From IMG/VR virus record IMGVR_UViG_3300049435_000037: a stretch of DNA of 46,727 nucleotides; one strand, 5' to 3'. The translations under genes and the position numbers were made by a program. Source of the stretch: a virus. Below, piece by piece: positions 955-46,727 of the stretch. The notes beneath the pieces were generated by a model. That model was given only the letters and a program-made list of their open reading frames with translations. It was not told the DNA's origin and did not search any database. Each line of letters opens with the position of its first letter. Position 1 is the first letter of the stretch.

Positions 955-1832
955 CGCCGTTCGTACTGCCCGATCTCAACCGCCGGTGGGAGTGGCGAGC
1001 AGGCTGTCGGGGACTGCTGTCGGCAGTCTTCTTTCCGGACCCAGCGCGAGGGAAGGCTGACATCCCGCAGCCCATTCAGTGGGCCGCAGCCAAGAAGATT
1101 TGCTACCGGTGCCCGGTCTGGCTTGAGTGCCAGCGAGACAGCATGGGCGAGCGGGATGGCGTGTGGGGAGGGCTTGATCCTCTGGAGCGCAAGAAGATCC
1201 GCCGCCAGCGTGACCGCGAGGTCATGGTCATGCCCCGCCGGGAGCGGTACGCCATCGCCCAGTTCGTGGCCAAGGTCAAGAAGGACCACCTCTGGTCGGA
1301 AGTCAGCCGCATCGTCGGCTTGGGGGTGGGGGTGCTGATGGAGCTGGGTGAGCTGGCAACCCAGGAGCCTGACGCGGACGAGCCTGAGCGCAAGCCCAAG
1401 GCGGCGCCGGTCAACCGGCGGATCCCGATGACCACCGTCAACCGCATCATCCAGATGCGCGGGGCTGGACTGAGCCAGCGGGAGATCGCCAAGATCCTCC
1501 ACACCACCACGGCCACCGTGCGCAAGTACCTGGAGGCCGAGGACCCCAAGCTCATCTCCCCCAAGGCGATGCTCAGCTGGCCCGAGGATGCCCCGTCGGC
1601 CAGCCATGCCGACGGATGGGTCAAGCACAGCGGCCGGGTCATGAGCGCGGCATACAAGGGCGAGACCGAAGACGGCGAGTGGATCTCCATGAAGGTGCAC
1701 GTGGCCCGAGGGTCCGGGACTGTCGGCTGGTTCCGCAAGGATGACGTCCACCTCACCCGCAAGAACGTGGCCAAGGTGGTCATGGTGCGCAGCGACGACA
1801 ACAGGAGCCGCATCTATGGGAACACGGCGTAG
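951..1832 (+). CDS. WhiB-like Fe-S transcription factor fused to a C-terminal helix-turn-helix domain (293 aa)
   Basis: N-terminus has C-x(n)-CYRC-PVWLEC followed by GVWGG, the WhiB/Wbl signature. Mid-protein LSQREIAKILHTTTATVRKYL is HTH-like. ATGA coupling to the upstream gene. Confidence 0.85.
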   Translation: MTPFVLPDLNRRWEWRAGCRGLLSAVFFPDPARGKADIPQPIQWAAAKKICYRCPVWLECQRDSMGERDGVWGGLDPLERKKIRRQRDREVMVMPRRERYAIAQFVAKVKKDHLWSEVSRIVGLGVGVLMELGELATQEPDADEPERKPKAAPVNRRIPMTTVNRIIQMRGAGLSQREIAKILHTTTATVRKYLEAEDPKLISPKAMLSWPEDAPSASHADGWVKHSGRVMSAAYKGETEDGEWISMKVHVARGSGTVGWFRKDDVHLTRKNVAKVVMVRSDDNRSRIYGNTA

Positions 1833-1875
1833 CGCCCCCGAATCCTCAGTGCTTGGGTCTGGTGGCCCCAAGAAG

Positions 1876-2742
1876 ATGGAGCATGTCAGCTACTCCACCT
1901 TCTATTCGTGGTTCGAGTGCCCCAAGAAGGTGCAGCTGGCGAAGATCCAGAAGGCACCAGCGGTGCCGGCCTGGTGGTTCGCCGGTGGGTCGGCGGTCCA
2001 CGCCGCCACCGAGGAGTACGACCTGTGGACCCTGATGGATCCACTGACCCGTCCCACCTTCAAGCTGGTGGACGAGTTCGAGCGGGCGTTCGACGCCGAG
2101 GTCATGGACATCGAGTCACGCCACCCGGACCGGACCACCTGGCGTGCTGCGGGCAAGAAGGATGACCCCGAGACGTACGCCAAGTGGATGAAGCTGGGGC
2201 CTGTACTGGTGGGTAACTACATCCGCTGGAGGATGGCAAGCCCCGACTACGTCCTGTGGGAGACCCCCGACGGCAAGCCGGCCGTCGAGCTGGAGGTCAG
2301 CTGGCCAGGGTTCGTCAGCCCGGAGCCCTACCGGCTCCCGGTCAAGGCTTACCTGGACCGGGTCTTCAAGGACACCAGCAACGGCGACCTGGTCATCGTG
2401 GACATCAAGACCGGGACCAGGAAGCCGGACAGCCCCCTGCAGTTCGGGACCTACAACGCCGGGCTCAAGCTGACGTACGACGTCAGCGCCCGGTGGGGCA
2501 TGGCCTTCATGAACCGTGACGGGAAGCTGTCGACTCCGTTCGACATGGCCACCTACACCCCGGAGTACGTCAGCAAGCAGTACTCCCGGATGTCCATGGC
2601 GGTTCGGTACGACATCTTCCCGCCGCACGTGCACGGCGGATGCTTCCGGTGCGACGTGGCCACCAGCTGCTACGCGTACGGCGGCGACCTGTCCAACCTG
2701 TACGACCCGGACGACCCGCGCTATGACGGGCCACCCTTTTAG
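1876..2742 (+). CDS. Cas4/RecB-family PD-(D/E)xK exonuclease with Fe-S cysteines
   Basis: Motifs: VIVDIKTG (D-x-K), QFGTY (QxxxY), one N-terminal Cys (FECPKK) plus C-terminal CFRC-x5-C. Confidence 0.8.
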   Translation: MEHVSYSTFYSWFECPKKVQLAKIQKAPAVPAWWFAGGSAVHAATEEYDLWTLMDPLTRPTFKLVDEFERAFDAEVMDIESRHPDRTTWRAAGKKDDPETYAKWMKLGPVLVGNYIRWRMASPDYVLWETPDGKPAVELEVSWPGFVSPEPYRLPVKAYLDRVFKDTSNGDLVIVDIKTGTRKPDSPLQFGTYNAGLKLTYDVSARWGMAFMNRDGKLSTPFDMATYTPEYVSKQYSRMSMAVRYDIFPPHVHGGCFRCDVATSCYAYGGDLSNLYDPDDPRYDGPPF

Positions 2743-2752
2743 GAGAGGAACC

Positions 2753-3094
2753 GTGCACCTGCAGATCCTGTTCGCCAGTCTCGGCTTCGCCGCGCTGGCC
2801 ACCGCCCTCACCATGCTCGTCATGAACTACCACAGGCCACTCTTCTGGCTTGTCCTGGCCCTGGGAGTCGAGTCGTTCGCGCTGGAGGCCTACACCGTGG
2901 GCGCCACGTTCGACCTGGTCTTCGACTCGGCCATCAGCATGGGGTTCGTCGGTCTCTACTTCCGGTCCCAGATGAAGGTCAAGGCCTCTGGGGTCCACCG
3001 CAAGGTCGTCCACGACGACGACACCATCCAGGTCTCCATCAAAGAGATCATGAACATTCCGAAGCAGCGGAAGGGGGATGACGATGCCCGGTAA
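2753..3094 (+). CDS. Membrane protein (113 aa)
   Basis: GTG 2753 lies after AGGAGAGGAA. Three hydrophobic segments (ILFASLGFAALATALTMLV, LFWLVLALGVESFAL, ISMGFVGLYF). Confidence 0.7.
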   Translation: MHLQILFASLGFAALATALTMLVMNYHRPLFWLVLALGVESFALEAYTVGATFDLVFDSAISMGFVGLYFRSQMKVKASGVHRKVVHDDDTIQVSIKEIMNIPKQRKGDDDAR

Positions 3095-3263
3095 GAAGTC
3101 GAACAAGGACAAGTCGATGGCTGCCGACCTGAAGAAGCACCACGTCGAGCGCACCTCCGGCGCCTGCCCGTGGGGGTGTGGCCGGCAGGTCACCAACGGC
3201 GGCGGCGGTCTCATGCAGCACCTGAACGTGTGCCGTGGCAAGCGGTCAGTGATTTCGCGATGA
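3078..3263 (+). CDS. Small basic Cys/His protein, zinc-ribbon-like (about 60 aa)
   Basis: ATG 3078 or 3084 follows GGGGGA. Sequence has CPWGC...H..C. Its stop overlaps the next ATG (ATGA). Confidence 0.6.
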   Translation: MTMPGKKSNKDKSMAADLKKHHVERTSGACPWGCGRQVTNGGGGLMQHLNVCRGKRSVISR

Positions 3264-3511
3264 GCAAGTACGCCTTCGCCATCGAGGTGGGGGTGAAGAT
3301 CGCGGAGGCCCGCAGAGCGAAGGGGCTGACGCAGAAGGAAGTAGCCGACCACCTGGGCTTCCGCAACCACACCTCGGTAGCGTCCTGGGAGTCAGGGCGC
3401 TACACGATCTCCCTGCATGACGCCGTACTGCTGTGCGAATACCTGGACGTCACCGTCCCCTGGCTGGTGTCGGAGACGGTGCGTCTGGTCAAACGGGGCG
3501 AGAATGACTGA
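3260..3511 (+). CDS. XRE-family helix-turn-helix DNA-binding protein (83 aa)
   Basis: LTQKEVADHLGFRNHTSVASWESGRYTISL matches the HTH_3/XRE pattern. ATGA coupling. Confidence 0.8.
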   Translation: MSKYAFAIEVGVKIAEARRAKGLTQKEVADHLGFRNHTSVASWESGRYTISLHDAVLLCEYLDVTVPWLVSETVRLVKRGEND

Positions 3512-4283
3512 CCTACTTCAGTGCAGCCACCTGATGGTGGTGGGCGACGCACAGTGTCGCCTCTGCGGAGAGAGGAATGACGTGACGGATAACGACGGCG
3601 TTGACTGGGGCACGGTGGCCCAGAACCCCGATGCGGTGAACGCCACCCCTGAGGGGTACGGCGAGTCGACGGGGATGAACCCCAAGGTCAGCTACCCGGA
3701 GTACCCGGACAACCCGCACAACCACCGCTACACGATCAGCATCACCGGCAGCGGCGCTCCGATGATCGTGGTCCGTGGCAACACGGCCGCCGAGATGACG
3801 GCCGGACTCAACGAGCTGGAGGCGTACGGCGTCTTCGCCAACGTCGGAGCCGCACACGCGGCTCTGAAGGCCCAGGGCGCAGTCGGCAATGGCTTGGGTC
3901 CAGTGACCCCCGTTGTGCCGCTACAGCAGGCGCCAGTGGCCGCACTGCCCCCGGCAGGGCCTCCCGGTGGGTACGCCCCCGTCGGCCCCGCGCCGCAGCA
4001 GGGTGGCTGGCAGGGCAACCAGGCCGGCTACAACGGCCAGCAGCAGCAGCGTGGTGGCTACAACCAGGGCAACAGCGGCAAGGCCGAGCCTCAGCCGCAG
4101 CCCCCGGGCTGGCCGCGCGTCAACGCACGCACCGGCCCGGGCTTCGACGCGTGGAAGAACATGCGCGAGCAGTACAAGGACCAGTTCAAGGGCCTGATCA
4201 AGTGGGGCGGCAACGCCGACTACTGGATCGACCCGTCCATCGCTCAGTGGCTCCAGCAGCAGGGGTTCGCGGTCACGCCGTGA
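3504..4283 (+). CDS. Hypothetical protein with a Gly/Gln/Pro-rich low-complexity linker (259 aa; start uncertain)
   Basis: Long ORF with good codon bias. ATG 3504 overlaps the upstream stop. An alternative GTG about 3582 follows GGAGAGAGGAA. The GGWQGNQAGYNGQQQQRGGYNQG linker is followed by a conserved-looking C-terminal domain. Confidence 0.65.
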   Translation: MTDLLQCSHLMVVGDAQCRLCGERNDVTDNDGVDWGTVAQNPDAVNATPEGYGESTGMNPKVSYPEYPDNPHNHRYTISITGSGAPMIVVRGNTAAEMTAGLNELEAYGVFANVGAAHAALKAQGAVGNGLGPVTPVVPLQQAPVAALPPAGPPGGYAPVGPAPQQGGWQGNQAGYNGQQQQRGGYNQGNSGKAEPQPQPPGWPRVNARTGPGFDAWKNMREQYKDQFKGLIKWGGNADYWIDPSIAQWLQQQGFAVTP

Positions 4284-4606
4284 AGGTGACCTACCTGCTC
4301 TTCCTGGACAGCCGGGAGCGGGACGGGGTGGTCACGGGCTTGCGCGAGGAGATGCGCAGCCTGCGGCGCAGCCTCGTAGAGGGGGGTGAGCCGGATCTGG
4401 TCATGCCGTTCCGGCCCAACCTTGCCGTCCAGTGGCCCACACCCCTGCGGGCGTGGACCGGAGGCGCCATCGAGCCCGCTTCGATCATCCAGCTGGTGAC
4501 CGACGCACCCTTCGAGCATCCAGTCATGCTGGTGCTGCGGAGTGACCAGGACCATGCGTGGTCCTATCACCACATCTTCTACAAGCCTTCTGGAGAGGAG
4601 CTTTGA
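4280..4606 (+). CDS. Hypothetical protein (108 aa)
   Basis: GTG 4280 is in GTGA overlap with the upstream stop. Coding-type codon bias. Confidence 0.65.
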   Translation: MKVTYLLFLDSRERDGVVTGLREEMRSLRRSLVEGGEPDLVMPFRPNLAVQWPTPLRAWTGGAIEPASIIQLVTDAPFEHPVMLVLRSDQDHAWSYHHIFYKPSGEEL

Positions 4607-4608
4607 TC

Positions 4609-4812
4609 ATGCCCAAGGGACGCTGGCTGGCCATCGGTGTGGTGGTGGCGTTGTACTACGTCGTCGCCTTCACGCTGCCGACTCTGCTCAGCCGCATGCT
4701 CAACATCCACGACGTCTGGGCAACCACGCTGTTCATCGTGGGCCTTGGCCTGGCGGCCGGCTGGGCACTCATCCCCGCCATACGGGTGCCCGTCGACCCA
4801 GACGGCGAGTGA
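4609..4812 (+). CDS. Small membrane protein (67 aa)
   Basis: ATG 4609 follows GGAGAGGAG plus a GATC spacer. Two hydrophobic helices. Confidence 0.65.
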   Translation: MPKGRWLAIGVVVALYYVVAFTLPTLLSRMLNIHDVWATTLFIVGLGLAAGWALIPAIRVPVDPDGE

Positions 4813-4813
4813 G

Positions 4814-5662
4814 GTGTATCGACTCTCACGCCTGGTGAAGAGGGGTGCAGTCGGCGAGGAGCCGCTGCCCCCTCCTTTCACATCCTGGGCCAACCAGGGC
4901 ATCCGCATCCGTCGGGCGTCGGTGCACCTGTTCTCCGGCCAGTCGGGCAGCTTCAAGACGACAGTGCTACTGAACGCACTGATCAACATGAAGGTGCCCA
5001 CCCTGGCCTTCTCCACCGACAGCGACGACTCCACCGTGGCCTCCAGAATCCTGGGGATGACCACGCGGAAGGCGACCTCCGAGATGGAGGAGTGGCTATC
5101 GCCGTCCTCGCCCCACCTGGGCGAGGCGGCCAGGCTGCTGGAGCCGTACGACTTCATCCGCTGGGACTTCACCCCCGGCCCGTCGATGGACGACATCTGG
5201 AACGCGACGTACGCGTACGCCACCACCGAGGGTGTGTGGCCGGAGCAGATCCTCATCGACATCGCCTCCGACGTCGGTCACGACACCGGGGACGAGTGGG
5301 GGTCGCTGCGTGACCTGATGCGCCAGGCGAAGGTGCTGGCCCGGGAGACCAAGGCAGCGGTGCTGCTTGTCCACCACTGCGGCGACGCCTTCAACCCGAC
5401 CATCGACCGGCCCGTCCCTAGCAAGCGGGACGTCATGGGCAAGGTCTCGTTCCTGCCGGTGCTGATGGTCAACTTCGGCGTCGACACCAGCGGTGATCTG
5501 TTCTACGCCTGCGTGAAGAACCGGCACGCCAAGGCGGATCCAACCGCCCGGAGCTACCACCGCCTGCTGGTCGATGCGGCCAGCAGCTACGTGGGGGACT
5601 GGGTGCCAGGCCTGCATACCCGGCAGGCCTACCAAGGAGGAGAGGAGTGGTACGACTCATGA
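4814..5662 (+). CDS. DnaB-C-terminal / RecA-fold ATPase (replicative helicase-like)
   Basis: Walker A GQSGSFKTT; Walker B-like ILIDIASD; LLVHH strand. The layout matches DnaB/RepA-type ATPases. The start (GTG 4814 or 4835) is uncertain. Confidence 0.7.
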   Translation: MYRLSRLVKRGAVGEEPLPPPFTSWANQGIRIRRASVHLFSGQSGSFKTTVLLNALINMKVPTLAFSTDSDDSTVASRILGMTTRKATSEMEEWLSPSSPHLGEAARLLEPYDFIRWDFTPGPSMDDIWNATYAYATTEGVWPEQILIDIASDVGHDTGDEWGSLRDLMRQAKVLARETKAAVLLVHHCGDAFNPTIDRPVPSKRDVMGKVSFLPVLMVNFGVDTSGDLFYACVKNRHAKADPTARSYHRLLVDAASSYVGDWVPGLHTRQAYQGGEEWYDS

Positions 5663-5787
5663 GCGATCTCATCGCTGGCCTGATCTTCGGAACCGGAGCC
5701 GGCGTCGCCTACAAGGCGATCAGCTTCGTGTACGCCAGGTTTCTCGCCAGGTGGGAGAGAGAGGGTTCTGGTGACCCGACTGTCTGA
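5659..5787 (+). CDS. Possible 42-aa membrane peptide
   Basis: ATGA overlap with the upstream stop. Sequence MSDLIAGLIFGTGAGVAYKAISFVYARFLARW. It is below the ORF-track cutoff and overlaps the next gene by 17 nt. Confidence 0.35.
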   Translation: MSDLIAGLIFGTGAGVAYKAISFVYARFLARWEREGSGDPTV

Positions 5788-5977
5788 CATCGCCCTGCAG
5801 CTTGCCAAGACCGAGATGGAAGCCATGGACGCCATGGGCGTGGTGGTGGATGATCTGCGGGCGAAGGGCGCCACGCGCCAAGAGGCGCGCATCCTTATCT
5901 GCATCTACACCGAAGAGGCAGGCCATACCGAGCGAGCGCTGATGCTCTTCGATCTGGTCTGGGGGGAGGGGACGTGA
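5771..5977 (+). CDS. Hypothetical protein (68 aa)
   Basis: GTG 5771 follows GGGAGAGAGAGGG. Its stop is in GTGA overlap with the next start. Confidence 0.65.
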   Translation: MTRLSDIALQLAKTEMEAMDAMGVVVDDLRAKGATRQEARILICIYTEEAGHTERALMLFDLVWGEGT

Positions 5978-6213
5978 GGACTGTCATCCAGTACACGTTC
6001 GAGAAGGTGCCGCTGACCGTCAGCAAGACCGGCAAGTGTCCGGAGTGCGGCGAGCGGGTCAAGAGGGCGACGACCTTCTACCAAACGATCAACCCGTACA
6101 ACAAGACCGAAGACGGCCGGCCCAAGACGTACAAGGACATCTACCCGGAGCTGCAGGCCAAGGCTGACGAGTGGCGGAAGATCCCTCCGGTGCACGCACG
6201 GTGCGAGCCGTGA
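5974..6213 (+). CDS. Hypothetical small protein with CPEC...C motif (79 aa)
   Basis: GTGA coupling at both ends. Good codon bias. Confidence 0.7.
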   Translation: MRTVIQYTFEKVPLTVSKTGKCPECGERVKRATTFYQTINPYNKTEDGRPKTYKDIYPELQAKADEWRKIPPVHARCEP

Positions 6214-6473
6214 GTGACCTCCACTCCAAGCTGAGCCATGACCTGCCGGTCTACCAGATGGCTCGCACGCCCAAGCTGACCAGCAAGTATGTGACGCACG
6301 GCGACCGGCCGTACGTGTACATGGAGCGGTCCCAGAGCGGTCGGTGCTGGTGGTACTGGCGGATGATCCATCCGCTCTGGCCGGGCGCCACCGTCAACCA
6401 TGGGCCGTTCCTGAACCAGGGCATCGCGTGTGACGATGCCCGGACCTACATGGGCAACCGGAACTGGTCATGA
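6210..6473 (+). CDS. Hypothetical protein (87 aa)
   Basis: GTG 6210 in GTGA overlap; stop overlaps the next ATG (ATGA). Confidence 0.6.
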   Translation: MSDLHSKLSHDLPVYQMARTPKLTSKYVTHGDRPYVYMERSQSGRCWWYWRMIHPLWPGATVNHGPFLNQGIACDDARTYMGNRNWS

Positions 6474-7219
6474 AGCAGGCCACCATCCACGTGATGACCG
6501 GCCTGCCAGGCTCGGGCAAGACGACCTACGCGGATCGTCTGCTGAAGATGATCGCCCGGTCGCGGCGGGACTCCAGCAACGGGTGCGCGTACTTCGGCCT
6601 GGACGCCATCCGGGGCCACCCCAAGACCCAGGTCTGGCCCCGTCTGGAAGTCCTTCCTGACTGGGAGCGCATCTGCCTGAACATGCAGGAGATGTACCTG
6701 GCGTCCGTCCTCGTCGAGGGCGCCACGGCAGTGCTCGACAACACCCACCTGTGGCCGGAGCAGCTGGACAGCATGGTCGACACCGTCTGGGATACCTGCG
6801 ACCGGTACGGGGGTGTAGCGGTACCCAAGTTCGTGGTCCACGACCTGACCGACATCGGGCTGGAAGAGTGCATCAACCGCAACGCCCGGCGTAGCGACTG
6901 GGTGCACCCGGAGGTCATCTGGGAGCTGCACCACAAGCACCAAGAGGCGCGAGCCACCGGCTGGCGCCTCACTGCCGAGTGGCTGGATAGGAGCGTGCGT
7001 AGTGACGACACCGAATGGCAGGAAGGGGGCGGAGACAGAACGCAAAGTCGCGGCCTATCTCCGGACCTGGTTCCCGCTGGCCGACCGCGTACTGCGGCAG
7101 GGCCGCCGGGACGACAAGGGGGACGTGCAAGGAATTCCCTTCACGGCAGTGCAGGTCAAGTACTGGGAGTCCCCCAGGCTGCAGGCCTGGGTGACCGACA
7201 CCCTCAAGCAGCGCGATGA
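6470..7219 (+). CDS. P-loop kinase resembling the T4 polynucleotide-kinase kinase domain. The ORF reads 218 nt into the next gene.
   Basis: GLPGSGKTT Walker A, LDNTHL and ECINRNARR segments are laid out as in the Pnk kinase domain. After about residue 175 the translation becomes Arg/Gly/Pro-rich and looks out of frame. Confidence 0.7.
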   Translation: MKQATIHVMTGLPGSGKTTYADRLLKMIARSRRDSSNGCAYFGLDAIRGHPKTQVWPRLEVLPDWERICLNMQEMYLASVLVEGATAVLDNTHLWPEQLDSMVDTVWDTCDRYGGVAVPKFVVHDLTDIGLEECINRNARRSDWVHPEVIWELHHKHQEARATGWRLTAEWLDRSVRSDDTEWQEGGGDRTQSRGLSPDLVPAGRPRTAAGPPGRQGGRARNSLHGSAGQVLGVPQAAGLGDRHPQAAR

Positions 7220-7526
7220 AGCGGGCACCCCGCTCTGCCTGCTGGTCTCACGGATCAAGTACAAGCCCGAGGCCGAGTGGGACGCGTACATGCCGTCCCA
7301 CCAGATCAATCCCTCTCTGATCGTTCCGGAGGAAGAGGCGTGGACATGGCTGCGAATGGATCTCCGTCTGGCCGCAGCCGAACTCGTACGTCTGGCGGGG
7401 ATCTACGCGAACCGCTCCCCCTCGGGCCAGTCCTGGAACATTACGGGGTCTCCCTACGCGGTCAGCGAGGGGCGGGTCTATGTCCAGCCCATGGAGAACG
7501 ACGTGAATCCTTCTCCTACGATCTGA
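7002..7526 (+). CDS. PD-(D/E)xK Holliday-junction-resolvase-like endonuclease
   Basis: GTG 7002 lies 8 nt after AGGAG. Motifs GAETERKVAAYL, DDKGDV and VQVKYW (E/D...D...E-x-K layout). The last 40 or so codons look like an out-of-frame tail. Confidence 0.65.
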   Translation: MTTPNGRKGAETERKVAAYLRTWFPLADRVLRQGRRDDKGDVQGIPFTAVQVKYWESPRLQAWVTDTLKQRDEAGTPLCLLVSRIKYKPEAEWDAYMPSHQINPSLIVPEEEAWTWLRMDLRLAAAELVRLAGIYANRSPSGQSWNITGSPYAVSEGRVYVQPMENDVNPSPTI

Positions 7527-7765
7527 GCAAGGGCCTCTTCTGCTGCTTCGCCTGCGATGTGCGGGGGACAGCGATCGAACTGATCGTGGCCATGGAGGGG
7601 TGTGACCGTGCATCTGCCCACGACCGAGCAGAGGAAATTCTTCGAGCAAGCGGTGTCGCAGTACCAGAGCGATCTGCGTACGGATATCGCCGGCCAGGCG
7701 TATCTGACGAGCCGGGGAGTCAGCGCCGCCGCAGCCGCTACGTTCCGCCTGGGCGTGCTGCGTAA
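7346..7765 (+). CDS. DnaG-type primase, CHC2 zinc-finger part
   Basis: ATG 7346 lies 7 nt after GGAGGAAGAGG. CPAHGERRESFSYDLSKGLFCCFACDVRGTAIELI gives C-x2-H-x17-C-x2-C. The last 30 or so codons are Arg-rich and overlap the TOPRIM ORF. Confidence 0.7.
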   Translation: MAANGSPSGRSRTRTSGGDLREPLPLGPVLEHYGVSLRGQRGAGLCPAHGERRESFSYDLSKGLFCCFACDVRGTAIELIVAMEGCDRASAHDRAEEILRASGVAVPERSAYGYRRPGVSDEPGSQRRRSRYVPPGRAA

Positions 7766-8282
7766 CCCGCTGCTCGGCCACGAGCGTTACCAGGGCAGAC
7801 TGTGCATCCCGTACATCACCCCGGCGGGGGTGGTGACGATGACCTTCCGCTGCATCCAGCGCCACATCAACGTGACCTCGGGCGCAGTCGAGTCGTGCGG
7901 CGATCACAGCCATGGCAAATACCTGGCCCCCGAGGGCATCGACCGCACCCTCTACAACGTCACGGACCTGAAGAAGGTCAGTCAGCACATCCTCCTGGTG
8001 GAGGGTGAGATGGACGCGCTGACCTGGTCCATGTGCGGATGGCCGACGGTGGGGATCCCCGGCGTGGAGAACTGGAAGGATCACTTCTCCAAGTGCATAG
8101 ACGACTACGCGGAAATCCTGGCCATCTGCGACGGGGACGACGCCGGCTACCGGCTCGGCACCTTCCTGGCCCGCGAGGTGCGGGCCCGGGTCATCCGCCT
8201 CCCCCGTGGGGAGGACGGCAACAGCCTCTACGTGAAGGGAGGGCGTGATGCCCTCGCAGGAGTCCTCGCCGGACTCGACTGA
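7608..8282 (+). CDS. DnaG-type primase, TOPRIM catalytic part
   Basis: GTG 7608 (or 7602) follows GGAGGGG. Motifs AYLTSRGV, LLVEGEMDALT (E-G-x-x-D) and ICDGDDAG (DxD). It is in a different frame from the zinc-finger ORF. Confidence 0.8.
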   Translation: MHLPTTEQRKFFEQAVSQYQSDLRTDIAGQAYLTSRGVSAAAAATFRLGVLRNPLLGHERYQGRLCIPYITPAGVVTMTFRCIQRHINVTSGAVESCGDHSHGKYLAPEGIDRTLYNVTDLKKVSQHILLVEGEMDALTWSMCGWPTVGIPGVENWKDHFSKCIDDYAEILAICDGDDAGYRLGTFLAREVRARVIRLPRGEDGNSLYVKGGRDALAGVLAGLD

Positions 8283-34121: not shown

Positions 34122-36116
34122 CTACCAACTAAGGCTGCCGTCCCAAACGACGCTGGCGTTGCCAGCGACCTGCTGCTGGATGGCGTAGTCGATGTCGATC
34201 ACCATCTGGTCCTCAGTGTCGCGCAGGTTTCCGAACTCGCCTGCGCCCAGGTGGTGGCCGCTGTACTCCGTGAACATCAGCTCTCGACACCGGATCTCCG
34301 CGAACCACATGGCCATCACCACGTCGGTGAGGCCTTTGGTCTCGGGGAACCAGGCACACAGCTGCTCAATCATGTTGCGGATCGGCTCGCTGCGCGTCTG
34401 GCAGGGGAGCCTGATCAGGTTATGCCCTTTTTCCCAGCCCTCGAAGAGTGTGGCCATGGAGGCCACGCCGAAGTCGGGATCCCACTTCTTGGAGTCGGTG
34501 TGGTGGGGGTTGATGACGCAGCCGCGCGAGTGGAGCATCGTACGGATCAGCTGGTCCTGCACGATCGACCCCTGGTAGGCGTTCTTCTCGATCCGCCACT
34601 CGTTGATCCGGTACTTGTCGGTCAGCCGCTCGATCTCGTTGCGCATCTCGTGCGGGGGCAGGGCGCGACGGTTGACGACCTCCAGGACCCACCGCACACC
34701 CGACTGCCGGTCAAGACCGATGACCACCATGGCGGTGAAGCCGGACGCGGCCGGGTCAAGGCCGGCCACGACGTACAGCCCTTCCATGCCGTGCTGGCGG
34801 TGCTGGCTCTGGCCGTCGTACATGGGGCCAGGAACGCGGGCCCGGTCGACGCACCCCTGCACCGCCTCCATGGAGAAGGTCGAGTCGTCGGAGACCTGGT
34901 CCTGCATGTAGATCATCGACCAGTTACGGGCCGACATCTTGCGCCGCTTACGCTGCAGCGCCTCGCCGTGCCACATCGGCCAGTTGCCGTCATCGTCAGG
35001 CCAGCCAGCCTCCTCGGCCACCCGCCTGCCCTGGCTGGTCACCGGTGGCCGGTTGGTAACCGGCCACAAGGTCACCCAGTCCCTCGGAGCGTCCGCGTAC
35101 TCCATGACGGCCGGCTGGGTCAGGTACGTCCACGGGCTTTGGCCCTCGACGTAGTAGTGGTCCTTCAAGATCTCGCTGTACAGGTCGACGGACTCGATGC
35201 GGGTGCCAACCAGCAGCATGCGGCCGCCAGCGTCCGCCACCCGGGTACCGACCTGGTTCTGGATCCAGTCGATCTGGCTCTGGAACTGCTGGAAGTTCGT
35301 GTGGTCGACGCAGTCGTCCATGATGGCCAGGTCGGCGCGAGTTCCGTAGATCTGGCCGCCGACGCCCACGGCCTGGACCGTGTAGGCGTGCTCACCCGAG
35401 TCGGAGCCGTTGACCCGGATCTTGGTCTGCGCCCAGGTGTCGCCCGAGGCGAACCCGCCCGGCGGGGCGAACGCCGCCTGCAGAGCGGCGTAGCTGGCAT
35501 TGCCGGCCAGGCGCTCCTTGATGGCGTGCAGGAACTTGCCGGCCATGTCCTGGGTCCGGCTGATGATCAGCACCCGGATGTTGGGATCCTGGCAGATCCG
35601 CCACACCACGTAGTTCACGGACAGCGTCGTGGACTTCGCGTGCTCCGGCGGAGTGTTGATCAGGATGTTGTCGATCTCGCCCTTGACGTAGATCTGCCGA
35701 GGATGCAGATCCCGAGGCTCCCGACCCTCCAGAACATCGATCCACTGCAAGTGGTGCCGGAAGAGCTGAGTGCCCAGGTACTCCGAGCAGAAGTCCGGGA
35801 AATCGGGGATGGTCGCCCTGGCCGTCGCCAGATCCGTGGTCCGCTGCGTGAGGATCAGATCAACCTGATCCCGCCACTCAGGGAAGTTGTCCCGGTAGTA
35901 CTGGTACGCAGACCGGGACCGCTGAGCGGCCCGGCACGCGTCATCAATGCTGAACCCCTTCGTCAGGGCTGCCAGCATCGTGTTGCGGGACTGCTGCGAG
36001 GAGCCGGCACTACGGCGGTTGTCACGGCCGAGCGCAGCGGCGCCGGCCGAACCCTGACGACCCCGGTAGCTGGGGCCATCCTTCGGCTCATCAGCCGGGA
36101 TCTCGATCCTCACCAT
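34122..36116 (-). CDS. terL: Terminase large subunit with an N-terminal HTH-like extension (664 aa)
   Basis: PPEHAKSTT (P-loop-like), LAIMDDCVD (Walker B), VVAGLDPAASG and EKNAYQG nuclease-domain segments. An N-terminal SIDDACRAAQRSRSAYQYYR HTH precedes them. Start ATG 36116 has a weak RBS. Confidence 0.85.
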   Translation of the reverse strand: MVRIEIPADEPKDGPSYRGRQGSAGAAALGRDNRRSAGSSQQSRNTMLAALTKGFSIDDACRAAQRSRSAYQYYRDNFPEWRDQVDLILTQRTTDLATARATIPDFPDFCSEYLGTQLFRHHLQWIDVLEGREPRDLHPRQIYVKGEIDNILINTPPEHAKSTTLSVNYVVWRICQDPNIRVLIISRTQDMAGKFLHAIKERLAGNASYAALQAAFAPPGGFASGDTWAQTKIRVNGSDSGEHAYTVQAVGVGGQIYGTRADLAIMDDCVDHTNFQQFQSQIDWIQNQVGTRVADAGGRMLLVGTRIESVDLYSEILKDHYYVEGQSPWTYLTQPAVMEYADAPRDWVTLWPVTNRPPVTSQGRRVAEEAGWPDDDGNWPMWHGEALQRKRRKMSARNWSMIYMQDQVSDDSTFSMEAVQGCVDRARVPGPMYDGQSQHRQHGMEGLYVVAGLDPAASGFTAMVVIGLDRQSGVRWVLEVVNRRALPPHEMRNEIERLTDKYRINEWRIEKNAYQGSIVQDQLIRTMLHSRGCVINPHHTDSKKWDPDFGVASMATLFEGWEKGHNLIRLPCQTRSEPIRNMIEQLCAWFPETKGLTDVVMAMWFAEIRCRELMFTEYSGHHLGAGEFGNLRDTEDQMVIDIDYAIQQQVAGNASVVWDGSLSW

Positions 36117-36194
36117 GACATGAGTGTGCCCCCTGCTCTGGGATACTGATGAGTGTCGAGCTTCACCAGGTCCAAGAAGGAGGGGGCATCTCTG

Positions 36195-36503
36195 GTGTCC
36201 ATAGAAGCACAGTGGCCCGGTACCTGCCAGCGCTGCACCAAAGGCTGGGGCAAGGGCGACAAGCTTGACCGCCCCAAAAGCGGCGGTCCCTGGATGCATA
36301 CCCGCTGCGCCCGCCAGACCCCAGCCGCCGAGCGGCCGGTCCCCACCAATCTGGACGGCGTCACCGTCACCACCGAGCAGCGGCAGAAGATCGCCAGCGG
36401 CAAGACGCTTCACAAGGATCTGGCCGAGCGTGCCCTGGAGACATGGAAGGTTGACGGCTGGAAGCTCACCGAGGAGCAGGCCGAAGGTCTGATGGGGAGC
36501 TGA
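36195..36503 (+). CDS. Hypothetical Cys/His protein, first gene of the plus-strand arm (102 aa)
   Basis: GTG 36195 lies 8 nt after AAGGAGGGGG. Sequence CQRC...H..C. Confidence 0.65.
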   Translation: MSIEAQWPGTCQRCTKGWGKGDKLDRPKSGGPWMHTRCARQTPAAERPVPTNLDGVTVTTEQRQKIASGKTLHKDLAERALETWKVDGWKLTEEQAEGLMGS

Positions 36504-37950
36504 AGGGCGCTTGTAGGGTTCTCACAAACTTTGTTGTGGGGATCCTCCAAAAATACCCAGGGGGGGTATTCAATTCGCGTTCATGACGACGTATAACGCC
36601 GCATAAGTCCAGTTTTGGCTTTGCGATAGGATACGTCTGACCGTCGGGCCGCAGCGCCCGACGGAAGCAGTTAGAAGCATGGAAGGCCTGATCAAGGGGT
36701 CCGCAGCGACCCCCAAGGGAGCTGCGGGAAGTACCTGGTCGCGCGGAGCGCGAGGACCAAGGGGTCTGGTGGGCATGGGTGGACGGAGTCCATCCCATCC
36801 CATCAGCCCCAGTTAAAAAGCCTGGGGTCAAGGATGACGCAGAGTCATCCTTGCAGGTCAGGGGGCTGATGGGCTGGAGCGGAGCGAACAGCTCATCCGC
36901 AGCGATGAGCAGTCCGCCAGCCTGCTACTGATCAGCAGCCGATAGCTGCTGATCATAGACATGTGGATCACAGCATGTATGCATGCAAGGGCATGCCGAT
37001 CTGTCGATCGGCCAGCCCCCTCACAGGGGGTGGCCGAGGTAGTGGGTAGGTGCAGGTAGTAGCAGGCTCCTCGTCGCAGTGCTGCGCACTGCTCCTCGTA
37101 GCCCGCTCCCTCGGTCGTAGCCGAGAGGCTGGCGCCTCTCACCTACTCCCTCGCTCGCGGTGCCGTTGGTTGACATGACCATGGCTGATCCTCGTACGCC
37201 CGTGCGCGCGTAGGCGCGCCCGTGTGTGCACACCATGCGCACGCGCATCACGCGCGTGCGTGCAGGGATGATCCTTGATCTTGATCCCAGGCCTTGCTGA
37301 TCATGCTCTGTGATCTTCGCAGGGGTAGAACACGTTCTAAATGACTCTCCGTGCACGCCCTCTGAGCTGCGTCTTTGAGAGCTTTACCATCTCTTTGCCA
37401 CGGGATCGCTTGACTCTGACTCACGCCTAAAGGAGCTTGGGGAACGTTCCACCCCAACTCAACAGCCCGGCAGGCAGGCCCCCGCTCCTCAGGAGCGGTT
37501 GTGGCAGCCAGTCTCAGGGGAGCAGCCCGCAGCGCGGGCCACGTGCAGGGATGGGTGAAGCGAGCGGGAGAGGTCCGCAGGGATCTTGAACGGATCGCGT
37601 GGGGACATGATCCATTGACAGCTGAAGAGTCCGACCACACCGGCCCCCGTAGAACGGGGCGCGGACGGGTGACCACCCTGGACATGGCCGTACCCCGAGA
37701 GGGGATGCGGTGAGCCAGGAGGTGAACCGACAGACCAGCCCCGGCAGGGACTGGCAGGGTGTGGGCTACTGGACCCCGTGGACCCCCGCCGTGAGGCGTT
37801 GGGGACGGGACAGACCGTATGACACAGACTTGTCAGTACAGGGCGTGAGACAGGCTCTCACAGCGTTTTCTGTACCACGCTTTGTACTGACCTCTGTCAT
37901 GAGGGACTGGCCGACCGGGCCAGCCCTTGATGATGGTGGGAGAGATCATC
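36504..37950 (+). other. ORF-poor, lower-G+C, hairpin-dense region (candidate origin / early control region / structured ncRNA locus)
   Basis: No ORF here shows the genome's codon bias. More than 20 perfect or near-perfect inverted repeats, a recurring CCGCAGCG motif, palindromes, a GATC cluster and short direct repeats (coordinates in the findings). Confidence 0.6.
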
Positions 37951-38175
37951 ATGGAGCTTCACGAGTTCGGGACGTTCAACCAGTTCGGTGCCCCCGTGAG
38001 GGCGTACGAGCGGGGCGAACTGATCAAGGACTTCAGGGGAGACGAGTGGGTGTATCTCGGCGTTGCCGATGCCCCCTCGCCCGGCAAGAGTGGCAAGGTG
38101 CGCGTTACTTCGCCGACCGGAGACGAGCGGGTGTTCTACCCGACCGTGTTCGACGCGGTGATCTTGCCCAAGTGA
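37951..38175 (+). CDS. Hypothetical protein (74 aa)
   Basis: ATG 37951 lies 6 nt after GGGAGAG. Clean coding pattern. Confidence 0.7.
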   Translation: MELHEFGTFNQFGAPVRAYERGELIKDFRGDEWVYLGVADAPSPGKSGKVRVTSPTGDERVFYPTVFDAVILPK

Positions 38176-43078: not shown

Positions 43079-43151
43079 GCCCCCGTAGCTCAACTGGCAG
43101 AGCGCCCCCTTCGTAAGGGGGAGGTTGCAGGTTCGACTCCTGCCGGGGGCC
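43079..43151 (+). tRNA. tRNA-Thr (anticodon CGT)
   Basis: Manual cloverleaf: acceptor GCCCCCG/CGGGGGC; D arm GCTC-AACTGGCA-GAGC; anticodon arm CCCCC-TTCGTAA-GGGGG; T arm GCAGG-TTCGACT-CCTGC. No encoded CCA. Confidence 0.85.
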
Positions 43152-43177
43152 CTAGATCAACCAAGGAGAGGGACGCA

Positions 43178-44873: not shown

Positions 44874-44947
44874 CGACAGGTAGCTCAGGTTGGTAGAGCA
44901 CCGGGCGCGGAGCCCGGAGGTCGGTGGTTCAACTCCACCCCTGTCGA
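44874..44947 (+). tRNA. tRNA-Pro (anticodon CGG) with a non-canonical G at position 33
   Basis: Acceptor CGACAGG/CCTGTCG (C1-G72, A73); D arm GCTC-AGGTTGGTA-GAGC; anticodon arm CCGGG-CGCGGAG-CCCGG; T arm GGTGG-TTCAACT-CCACC. Confidence 0.75.
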
Positions 44948-45041
44948 CTCCCTCCCGCGCCGCAGTGAGGACCCCGGGCGCGTGGGGTGCGAAGGGTCCG
45001 TCCCGACGCGGGAGGGGCACTACATCAGGAGAGGAAGCAAC

Positions 45042-46332: not shown

Positions 46333-46601
46333 TGGCAGGCAACAGCAAGCCCAACCTCAGCCGCCAGCAGCGCATGAATCTGACCAAGAAGATGGAGAAG
46401 GCTGACGACGCCCGCCAGAAGGCTCACGACGACTACCTCGTAGCCATCTCGGAACTGATGGACCAAGGTCTCACCGGCCAGGATGTGGTCTACGTGCTCG
46501 GCAATATCACCGAGTCAACCGTCCACTCACGCCGGAGGCTGGGCCGTGCCATCAGAGACGAACGTAGTGGCAGCGATTCTGTCGAATCCGGAGAACAGTG
46601 A
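46332..46601 (+). CDS. Hypothetical protein (89 aa)
   Basis: TAATG coupling. Charged helical protein. Confidence 0.7.
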   Translation: MAGNSKPNLSRQQRMNLTKKMEKADDARQKAHDDYLVAISELMDQGLTGQDVVYVLGNITESTVHSRRRLGRAIRDERSGSDSVESGEQ

Positions 46602-46727
46602 TCTCAGCGCCGAAGAGGTAGCCGCACGCGTCATCGCAGCACTGGACGACAAGCGCGCCAAGACCCACAACCTCATCGTTGTGGGTCGCTTCGGTTTCGA
46701 GGATCAGGAGGTGTTCCAGGCGGCCGT
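46546..46727 (+). CDS. 5' part of the junction-spanning gene (continues at base 1 as 128-446 of the unit genome)
   Basis: In-frame GTG 46546 lies 7 nt after GGAGG; GTG 46567 is an alternative. The frame is identical to feature 1-446 through the 127-nt duplication. Confidence 0.45.
   Translation, partial: MPSETNVVAAILSNPENSDLSAEEVAARVIAALDDKRAKTHNLIVVGRFGFEDQEVFQAA
46601..46727. repeat. Second copy of the 127-nt terminal duplication
   Basis: Exact match to 1-127. Confidence 0.95.

Follow-up and report, generated by a model that had tools for sequence, protein, structure and literature searches.

A hairpin-dense non-coding tract as a candidate terminal-repeat and packaging junction in an uncultured Streptomyces-type phage clade

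The virus record IMGVR_UViG_3300049435_000037 is a stretch of 46,727 nucleotides (nt), called the window hereafter, and it carries between its TerL side and its early genes a tract at positions 36504-37950 that is free of convincing open reading frames (ORFs) and crowded with hairpins. Our preferred interpretation, to which we give roughly even credence, is that this tract is a terminal-repeat and packaging junction whose hairpins operate at the level of DNA, and that it also houses an early promoter. Two observations carry this interpretation. One element within the tract, which we call module A (36758-36899, plus strand), preserves a covarying fold throughout an uncultured clade of phages. 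In addition, the core of module A co-locates with the measured terminal-repeat boundary of cultured relatives, the cluster BI Streptomyces phages. Most likely, then, the region is of a known kind, that of phage ends and packaging signals, and what is unusual is its telomere-like construction from DNA hairpins.

The excess of hairpins in the tract is real. When a perfect hairpin is defined as a stem of at least 6 base pairs (bp) closed by a loop of 3-9 nt, the 1447 nt of the tract contain 21 such structures, compared with 2.9±1.7 (maximum 8) in 300 dinucleotide shuffles. Ten of these have stems of at least 7 bp, where 0.8 would be expected, and no other part of the genome reaches the same count (the median for segments of equal size is 7). 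The sequence-only reading of this DNA had pointed to more than 20 inverted repeats, and its count is borne out; all 15 repeats for which it gave coordinates exist, although those at 36775-36798, 37010-37035 and 37842-37891 are imperfect. RNA folding of 36504-37260 yields z-scores of -10.5 for the plus strand and -10.9 for the minus strand. Because the corresponding values for 37261-37950 are far weaker (-3.3 and -4.2), the excess resides mainly in the left half of the tract.

The tract is also non-coding. In sliding 180-nt segments, the spread of G+C content (GC) among codon positions is 0.02-0.18 over 36480-37860, versus 0.3-0.6 in the flanking genes. Furthermore, comparison with L001, a near-identical phage that encodes the very same TerL protein (100% identity), reveals 92 substitutions and 11 insertions or deletions (indels) in the tract, and 10 of the 11 indels are not multiples of three. 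The lack of codon-position periodicity and the frame-shifting indels together lead to the same judgment as the sequence-only reading, which had described a 1.45-kb ORF-poor stretch. That reading also called the region lower in GC, which is true but only slightly so (62%, compared with 65.4% for the genome), and it correctly saw 37260-37440 as richer in AT (37260-37439 has 53% GC). Scans for tRNA and tmRNA genes returned nothing in the tract.

This architecture is conserved across the clade. TerL-based searches of IMG/VR and soil metagenomes recovered approximately 45 uncultured relatives, and wherever the upstream sequence of a relative extends far enough, this position is occupied by a tract of 1.4-2.1 kb without ORFs. 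The syntenic tract is kept in at least 12 uncultured relatives, and the relatives' tracts contain 12-27 perfect hairpins per kb, compared with 2-3 per kb after shuffling (a 5- to 9-fold excess). BLAST aligns almost nothing between these tracts and that of the window; a nucleotide search of the tract against 50,697 phage records produced no match, and a megablast search with the 16.7-kb arm matched only a 65-nt endolysin patch. Conserved islands were located by iterated nhmmer searches. Measured over 14 loci, 21-42 hairpins occur per kb between -200 and +600 nt relative to the start of module A. The density returns to 5-10 per kb where the block with the consensus motif CTCTGAsCTGC begins, at +600 to +860, and it is 5-12 per kb beyond +800. 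The palindrome forest conserved in this way measures approximately 0.8 kb.

Hairpin potential is likewise maintained between the window and its near-identical relative, which counts in favor of a packaging junction built from hairpins. The stem at 36891-36910 is preserved through two compensated base-pair swaps (CT..AG to TC..GA), the stem at 37482-37498 is shifted by an indel yet kept, and the stem at 37907-37923 is replaced wholesale. Over the left half of the tract, the two phages share 98% identity. Separately, we observed a hypervariable patch at 37200-37310, located at the right edge of an alternating purine-pyrimidine (RY) tract and over a run of five TGATC repeats (37268-37320). This patch holds 32 of the 92 substitutions (within 37200-37300) and 4 of the 11 indels (6-11 nt long, at 37223-37297).

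Module A is a multi-branched element that matches covariance model R2 in the window with 80.9 bits (E = 4.5e-13), and its length is 142 nt by the covariance-model match and approximately 240 nt by nhmmer. Two covariance models were built, and the counts given here come from the second, which has exactly one full-length match in each of 17 loci. The position and strand of the matches relative to TerL are constant in 17 of 17 loci, and matches on the reverse strand score far lower. The fold is organized around a long-range helix of 13 bp, P_long, formed by 36795-36810 with 36862-36877, which surrounds two or three hairpins, and more hairpins lie on either side. From 5′ to 3′ the other components in the window are the GGGGTCTGG motif (36761-36769), stem P2 (36775-36798), stem P3 with the loop TTAAAAAGC (36807-36827), a GGGGTCA segment (36824-36830), stem P4 (36829-36853) and a GC-GGA-GC mini-hairpin (36879-36885). 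The conserved unpaired motifs are GGGGTCTGG, TTTAACA, GGGGTCA-AGA, GGACA, and C-GGA-G or GUGA. Directly 5′ of module A on the plus strand is another hairpin, P0 (TCGCGC-GGA-GCGCGA, 36739-36753), and relatives carry a hairpin of other sequence at the same place.

Covariation in this conserved fold is evident, as the sequence-only reading had suggested might be sought in an alignment of related phages. Between 83% and 91% of cells are paired, versus 68-73% in shuffles (83% versus 68% on the 17 sequences), and the covariation score of 0.354 compares with 0.125±0.013 for shuffled alignments (none of 500 shuffles reaches it) and 0.04-0.08 for slid controls. Between 25 and 32 pairs have changed on both sides, a count that is somewhat inflated by the fitting of the alignment to the model. 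P_long stands out in that 9 of its 13 pairs have changed on both sides, 91% of its cells are paired, and it occurs in at least seven sequence versions. P3 is weakly supported, with 83% of its cells paired and two of its pairs broken in 6-10 of the 17 sequences. One further helix, GGTCTGGGG/CCCCGGGTC, was proposed by RNAalifold from a plain MAFFT alignment and contains three invariant G·U pairs; we dropped it because it is absent in the second subclade and does not covary.

What points to a function for module A is its counterpart in cultured phages. The closest cultured relatives by TerL (approximately 50% amino acid identity within a common family) are the cluster BI Streptomyces phages of the Beephvirinae, including Immanuel3, FlowerPower and WRightOn. 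Their linear records list TerL as gene 1 and have non-coding DNA at both ends, and the three named phages have exact terminal repeats of 275, 253 and 264 bp, respectively. In all three, the TerL-proximal repeat boundary falls between GGGGACT and CACTCCCC, approximately 15 nt before GTTTAACAACCCCSGGGT. When the BI junction (approximately 1.9-2.2 kb) is joined and read in the orientation of the window, TerL diverges from the early arm across it, as it does in the window. TerL is followed by a flank of approximately 400 nt ending in ATGGGGACT, and then by a repeat that starts CACTCCCCCC..(G)TTTAACAACCCCSGGGT and continues with GGACA repeats, a GGC-GGA-GCC element and an RY-rich remainder. Beyond the repeat are CCTGACCTG and CTCTGACCTGC motifs, two promoters of the form TTGACA-18-GAGGTT, and the early genes; in Immanuel3 a CCTGACCTG motif lies outside the repeat, 17 nt from its distal boundary, with further copies beyond. 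The order of elements is the same in the window (core, RY-rich DNA, CTGACCTG motif, TTGACA promoter, early genes), and the start of the BI repeat is recognizable as the module A core, in which GGGGWCT is followed by a C-rich segment and GTTTAACA-CCCCGGGTC.

A profile hidden Markov model (HMM) of module A places its best match in each of the three BI junctions on the repeat boundary, with E-values of 0.003, 0.037 and 0.19 for the 28.7 kb searched. Because the assembly of the window phage cannot itself display a repeat, we infer from this homology that a TerL-proximal repeat boundary, and with it the terminase cut site, would lie at 36768-36791. The HMM alignment places the cut between 36790 and 36791, and alignment of the GGGGWCT motif places it between 36767 and 36768. 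By the same comparison, the repeat would extend to approximately 37325-37345, giving a segment of about 550 bp, compared with 253-275 bp in the BI phages. The sequence-only reading had listed a packaging or early-promoter region among its alternatives, and homology to the repeat boundary of cultured relatives makes this the better-fitting proposal.

Some side observations concern these boundaries. The contig of one relative (L017, IMGVR_UViG_3300046459_000185) ends in CTATGGGGT, inside the conserved GGGGTCT motif and only 2 nt away from the counterpart of the measured BI repeat boundary, which is a hint only. Several other contigs break inside the zone of hairpins and RY tracts. We rejected contig ends as markers of physical ends, since the breaks are scattered and only this one is suggestive. 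The Immanuel3 repeat also contains five GGACA sequences (reverse complement TGTCC) at a spacing of approximately 10 nt (junction positions 490-540 in window orientation), two of which match at 8 of 9 positions what we take to be the Streptomyces DnaA-box consensus, TTGTCCACA. These are putative phased protein-binding sites, for terminase or for DnaA, and GGACA is also present once or twice in module A of the uncultured clade.

The core of module A is present in bacterial chromosomes as well. A search of 185,579 species genomes with the pattern GGTCTGG..TTAACA..CCCCGGGTC gave two matches, both in Streptomyces chromosomes (L070, sp. NPDC052107, and L071, sp. NPDC048192). Each locus has the 5′ half of module A (39 and 28 bits with the covariance model), followed after 25 nt by CTGACCTGCGG, and in each the core is situated just 3′ of a small GntR-type gene. 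The core lies approximately 400 nt from the end of the region common to both loci, and the chromosomal genes beyond that end differ. The integrated elements occupy coordinates 5436-8000 of the first locus and 1735-8000 of the second, and the latter element includes a gene for a primase-polymerase or D5-type primase-helicase. No TerL gene is found within either 8-kb locus, and neither element has a hairpin forest. By these sequence features, the elements look like satellites that borrow the packaging signal of a helper phage; they may be phage satellites, or integrative elements of the AICE type, that use the signal of this clade. The presence of the core in satellite-like elements fits the packaging interpretation and places the host of the clade in Streptomyces.

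Several features suggest that the hairpins of the tract function as DNA. Among 392 hairpins collected from the clade, 65% have loops of 3 or 4 nt, mostly closed by C:G. Hairpins with a single mismatch comprise 11 with G·T and 14 with A·C; the helices of module A include 17 G·U and 14 A·C mismatches, and P_long has 0 and 6, respectively. With DNA parameters, the folding energy of 36740-37345 is -167.4 kcal/mol for one strand and -167.7 kcal/mol for the other (z = -7.9 and -8.8). Neither the balance of G·U and A·C nor folding energy provides a signal by which a strand could be assigned; the stems are Watson-Crick only, and the two strands fold equally. Three-nucleotide GNA loops are distributed unevenly, with 34 on the minus strand and 10 on the plus strand, compared with approximately 10 expected by chance (p = 4e-4), and no position-dependent switch of this bias was seen around a putative origin or end. 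Watson-Crick-only stems, strand-equal folding, short loops and the GNA bias together argue for DNA hairpins rather than for RNA selected on one strand.

We therefore propose the following model, in the order in which its parts occur along the window. The tract would be the concatemer junction of a Streptomyces-type siphophage, most likely one with direct terminal repeats. Module A would provide the core that terminase recognizes and cuts at the repeat boundary nearest to TerL, and the DNA from module A to approximately 37325-37345 would be a terminal repeat made of packed palindromes and an RY tract. The palindromes are predicted to fold as DNA, either as fold-back hairpins on separated strands or as cruciforms under supercoiling, and strand separation might come from exonuclease resection, from strand-displacement copying of the repeat, or from lagging-strand gaps. 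Once folded, they could act like the arrays of Streptomyces telomeres, as compact nuclease-resistant ends, as cues for end processing, or both. The segment 37326-37438 would hold an operator-like palindrome and an early promoter firing rightward, and 37440-37950 would be the leader of the early operon. As a mechanism, end protection, end processing and recognition by terminase are each conceivable under this model.

The comparison with telomeres has a specific structural basis. The overhangs of Streptomyces telomeres consist of packed palindromes with GNA loops that contain a sheared G:A pair and form nuclease-resistant hairpins, and their ‘Rabbit Ears’ structure has a 13-bp terminal duplex around two hairpins (PMC5449611). 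The tract likewise consists of packed perfect palindromes with 3-nt GNA loops closed by C:G, P_long is likewise 13 bp in length and encloses two hairpins, P3 and P4, and the host genus appears to be the same. This likeness is a resemblance of form only, and we do not file the tract as a member of the telomere group. Telomeres have 3′ overhangs that the telomere proteins Tap and Tpg patch, and their 5′ end bears a terminal protein; no genes for Tap, Tpg or a terminal protein were recognized among the phage ORFs scanned. Beyond generic C-GGA-G hairpins, no sequence likeness to telomeres was apparent by eye, and no search was made. The phage array is also longer than that of the telomere, and it would sit in a direct rather than an inverted repeat.

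A stronger version of the analogy, which we consider distinctly unlikely, holds that the palindrome array is itself a phage ‘telomere’ in which a resected or under-replicated 3′ end folds into a rabbit-ear structure. The 5′ strand of P_long would then start 2-4 nt into the repeat, so that the end would consist of the 13-bp duplex around two hairpins, followed by hairpins with GNA loops. Such a fold would shield this end against host nucleases, and it might also prime or guide both replication of the end and cutting by terminase. This would amount to a solution like that of Streptomyces telomeres or parvoviruses in a tailed double-stranded DNA phage, with its core copied by chromosomal satellites.

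Viral genome ends offer further parallels for a packaging junction of this kind. T7-type ends and the repeats of parvoviruses and adeno-associated virus (AAV) have a nick site at the genome end, next to a palindromic element that folds. The T-shaped AAV repeat resembles module A in having a long stem around two small hairpins, and in T7 and AAV, as in the phage that we envisage, copying of the repeat by strand displacement would leave single strands exposed. However, the phage has no Rep-like nickase and its sequence gives no sign of self-priming, unlike AAV and the parvoviruses, and to our knowledge the T7 repeats are not arrays of palindromes.

A number of points weigh against a hairpin-built packaging junction. 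The homology at the BI boundaries is weak at the sequence level, as the E-values of 0.003 to 0.19 indicate, and the covariance model finds no match at the BI junctions. Moreover, the BI junctions have only about 5 hairpins per kb and lack the covarying P_long fold, so hairpins are not required for terminal-repeat packaging. When the far boundary of the repeat was sought, the cut motif did not recur at any consistent distance, and physical ends are not visible in the window, which is a circularized assembly. The proposed promoter has a -10 element that is poor by consensus. There is some tension with the strand asymmetry of GNA loops, which a model of pure double-stranded cruciforms does not predict, and multi-branched folds that conserve motifs in their loops and junctions are typically found in functional RNAs too.

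The last point brings us to the idea that module A, perhaps with neighboring hairpins, is a structured non-coding RNA (ncRNA) or cis-regulatory RNA, which we judge unlikely. Such an RNA could be transcribed rightward from the small gene that precedes the tract, or leftward as the long leader of a late (TerL) operon, and it might serve as a packaging-associated RNA, as a leader for antitermination or attenuation, or as a stabilizing 3′ untranslated region; a new packaging-associated structured RNA would be the alternative to a phage telomere. A closed junction of several stems, in which unpaired motifs are conserved and covariation is strong, is what one would expect of an RNA, and a small gene lies directly upstream both here and in the Streptomyces chromosomal elements. 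One subclade has a GUGA loop in the P6 mini-hairpin, UUCG tetraloops occur elsewhere in the tracts, and a hairpin at 37832-37891 combines G·T pairs with a T-run. Known RNAs provide precedents: GOLLD and ROOL are giant bacterial ncRNAs, and phi29 has a packaging RNA, among other structured RNAs associated with phages. Like module A, these are encoded by phage DNA near packaging genes or genome ends and have a multi-branched conserved structure with fast-evolving sequence. Unlike them, the tract has no Rfam match, no G·U signature and no strand preference, and the conserved fold covers only about 140-240 nt and not the whole 1.4 kb. The Rfam scan that the sequence-only reading had put forward (Rfam 15) gave no match at gathering score in the tract and only chance-level miRNA and snoRNA hits at E <= 5, neither strand has G·U in excess, the strands fold equally, and the predominance of triloops would be unusual among RNA hairpins. 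A generic scan detected no promoter or terminator flanking module A. Finally, TTTAACA and CCCCGGGTC persist in the BI phages and in the chromosomal elements even though the surrounding helices are lost there, and because the best-conserved letters of module A outlast its helices, sequence-specific recognition of DNA is suggested. The structured ncRNA that the sequence-only reading had offered as an alternative thus holds as far as the conserved, covarying structure of 36758-36899 is concerned, whereas the evidence favors its folding as DNA.

Two other explanations bear on the hairpins as a whole. The sequence-only reading had preferred a replication origin, which we find very unlikely; in such a view, the hairpins would be loading or priming signals for helicase and primase, and the AT-richer stretch would be the site of unwinding. 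It is true that the tract is the largest non-coding one, and the enzymes named in that reading are indeed encoded, a DnaB-like helicase at 4637-5662 and a primase at 7602-8282. Hairpins on a lagging-strand template would be consistent with the GNA bias toward one strand, the BI relatives have five GGACA repeats at a phase of about 10 nt within their repeat, and origins and terminal repeats can coincide. Nevertheless, TTGTCCACA with up to two mismatches has 6 matches in the tract, compared with approximately 4 expected from the genome-wide rate (120 matches, versus 103±10 in shuffles), and there are no iterons (at least three direct repeats of 15-25 bp), only two-copy families of 10-15 nt. The AT-richer block is conserved as a unit of palindrome, motif and TTGACA, which is typical of a promoter region, and no initiator gene was recognized adjacent to the tract. 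Nor is the argument compelling that the phage needs a cis-acting origin, since it encodes an exonuclease and a RusA-like resolvase, and replication driven by recombination between terminal repeats is possible. We regard it as highly improbable that the hairpins are functionless, that is, palindromes ‘perfected’ by intra-strand template switching in a spacer constrained only in length or by its motifs. Individual hairpin sequences do differ between relatives, the BI phages manage without hairpins, and template switching yields apparent compensatory double changes in a single event. However, the density, extent and position of the forest are kept across a clade in which TerL identity falls to approximately 60%, useless DNA of 0.5-0.9 kb is rarely kept in phage genomes, the long-range P_long helix covaries through its many versions, and the left half of the tract remains nearly identical to that of L001 beside a hypervariable neighboring patch.

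The remaining parts of the tract can be placed around module A. On the TerL side, 36504-36738 is a spacer with the lowest GC that has no alignable relatives and contains hairpins at 36552-36570, 36641-36664 and 36696-36713. The loops of the last two are CCGCAGCG, and 4 of the 11 genomic copies of this sequence are in the tract, all on the plus strand. As a clade-wide signal, CCGCAGCG was rejected, as it is enriched in the window only, and CGCAG was rejected because its enrichment is inconsistent in relatives.

To the right of module A, 36891-37160 is filled by tightly packed and non-conserved perfect palindromes (36891-36910, 36929-36955, 36981-36996, 36995-37012, 37016-37030, 37076-37092 and 37123-37140). 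The RY tract follows at 37193-37269, where purines and pyrimidines alternate at a level of at least 0.85 over 77 nt; it is composed of overlapping palindromic hexamers and includes the hairpins at 37204-37219 and 37238-37260. RY tracts of 50-350 nt are present at the same relative place in relatives (for example, at up-coordinates 1670-2030 in L025). Sequences such as CGCGTGCGTACGCACACGCGC recur in several repeats per locus as overlapping 6-bp palindromes, and these tracts could form Z-DNA or cruciforms.

Next is the palindrome TAGAACACGTTCTA at 37326-37339, in place of which relatives have TGTCGACA, and the conserved CTCTGAGCTGC motif (CTCTGAsCTGC) at 37360-37370; together, 37326-37370 is a candidate for the distal repeat boundary or an operator region. 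On the plus strand a promoter-like site, TTGACT-17-GAGCTT (TTGACT at 37410-37415, GAGCTT at 37433-37438), was identified by clade conservation: seven members of the clade have a conserved TTGACA, followed 16-18 nt downstream by a hexamer with A at its second and T at its sixth position. A CA-rich stretch (37450-37467) follows this site. A generic sigma-70 scan called no promoters, including the site at 37410-37438, and a terminator scan gave one terminator-like site (37845-37861), which is at chance level.

The leader (37439-37950, plus strand) spans approximately 500 nt before the first early ORF, with six hairpins and the weak excess noted above (z of -3.3). Only one relative (L010) aligns within it, at 37588-37689. 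Near its end, 37832-37891 is a 60-nt imperfect hairpin with 22-nt arms that are 82% complementary, including two G·T pairs, and it incorporates the hairpin and TTTT run at 37845-37861. About 60 nt separate this structure from the first early gene, and its conservation in L001 is 100%. It looks like an RNA-level structure, unlike the other stems, and could be an attenuator or a leader structure.

The surrounding genome is approximately 46.6 kb and was assembled as a circle. Positions 1-127 of the window are identical to 46601-46727, and because of this 127-nt terminal identity we treat the window as a circularized assembly whose ends are not physical ends. A hairpin, GACCCACAAC-ctcatc-GTTGTGGGTC, is consequently seen at both 62-87 and 46662-46687. 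Structural genes occupy the minus strand from TerL (phrog_38, starting at 36116) down to approximately 10329, and early and replication genes occupy the plus strand from 36153 through the end of the window and around to approximately 10150. At the convergent junction of these two arms is the strongest hairpin of the genome (10242-10275), a GC-rich stem of 14 bp followed by a T-run, which is probably a bidirectional terminator. The early arm also includes two tRNA genes, at 43079-43152 and 44874-44948, for Thr(CGT) and Pro(CGG).

The tract is bounded on the TerL side by a small orphan gene (36153-36503, plus strand; GC at third codon positions of 0.83) whose 116-amino-acid product has a CxxC...HxxC pattern. 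The product has a weak match to phrog_1581, its homologs form one cluster only, and no Pfam, PDB, family, structure or named homolog was found for it. The BI phages lack a small gene beside TerL. Past this gene, the next ORF begins with an ATG at 37951. The small gene is divergent from TerL, and only 36 nt separate the two starts, so the late promoter for TerL must sit inside or beyond the small gene, and late transcription would cross that gene in antisense. No late promoter for TerL was identified.

If the packaging-junction interpretation is correct, module A would provide a marker, in both sequence and structure, by which the physical ends and the packaging signal could be recognized throughout an uncultured clade of soil Streptomyces-type phages whose genomes otherwise look circular in assemblies. 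A tailed phage would build its terminal repeat from telomere-like DNA hairpins, tying the biology of its ends to that of its host genus, and the core in satellite-like elements suggests that helper-satellite pairs exist in Streptomyces. More generally, an ornate, covarying fold need not be an RNA: covariation that is restricted to Watson-Crick pairs, together with symmetry between the strands, points to DNA.

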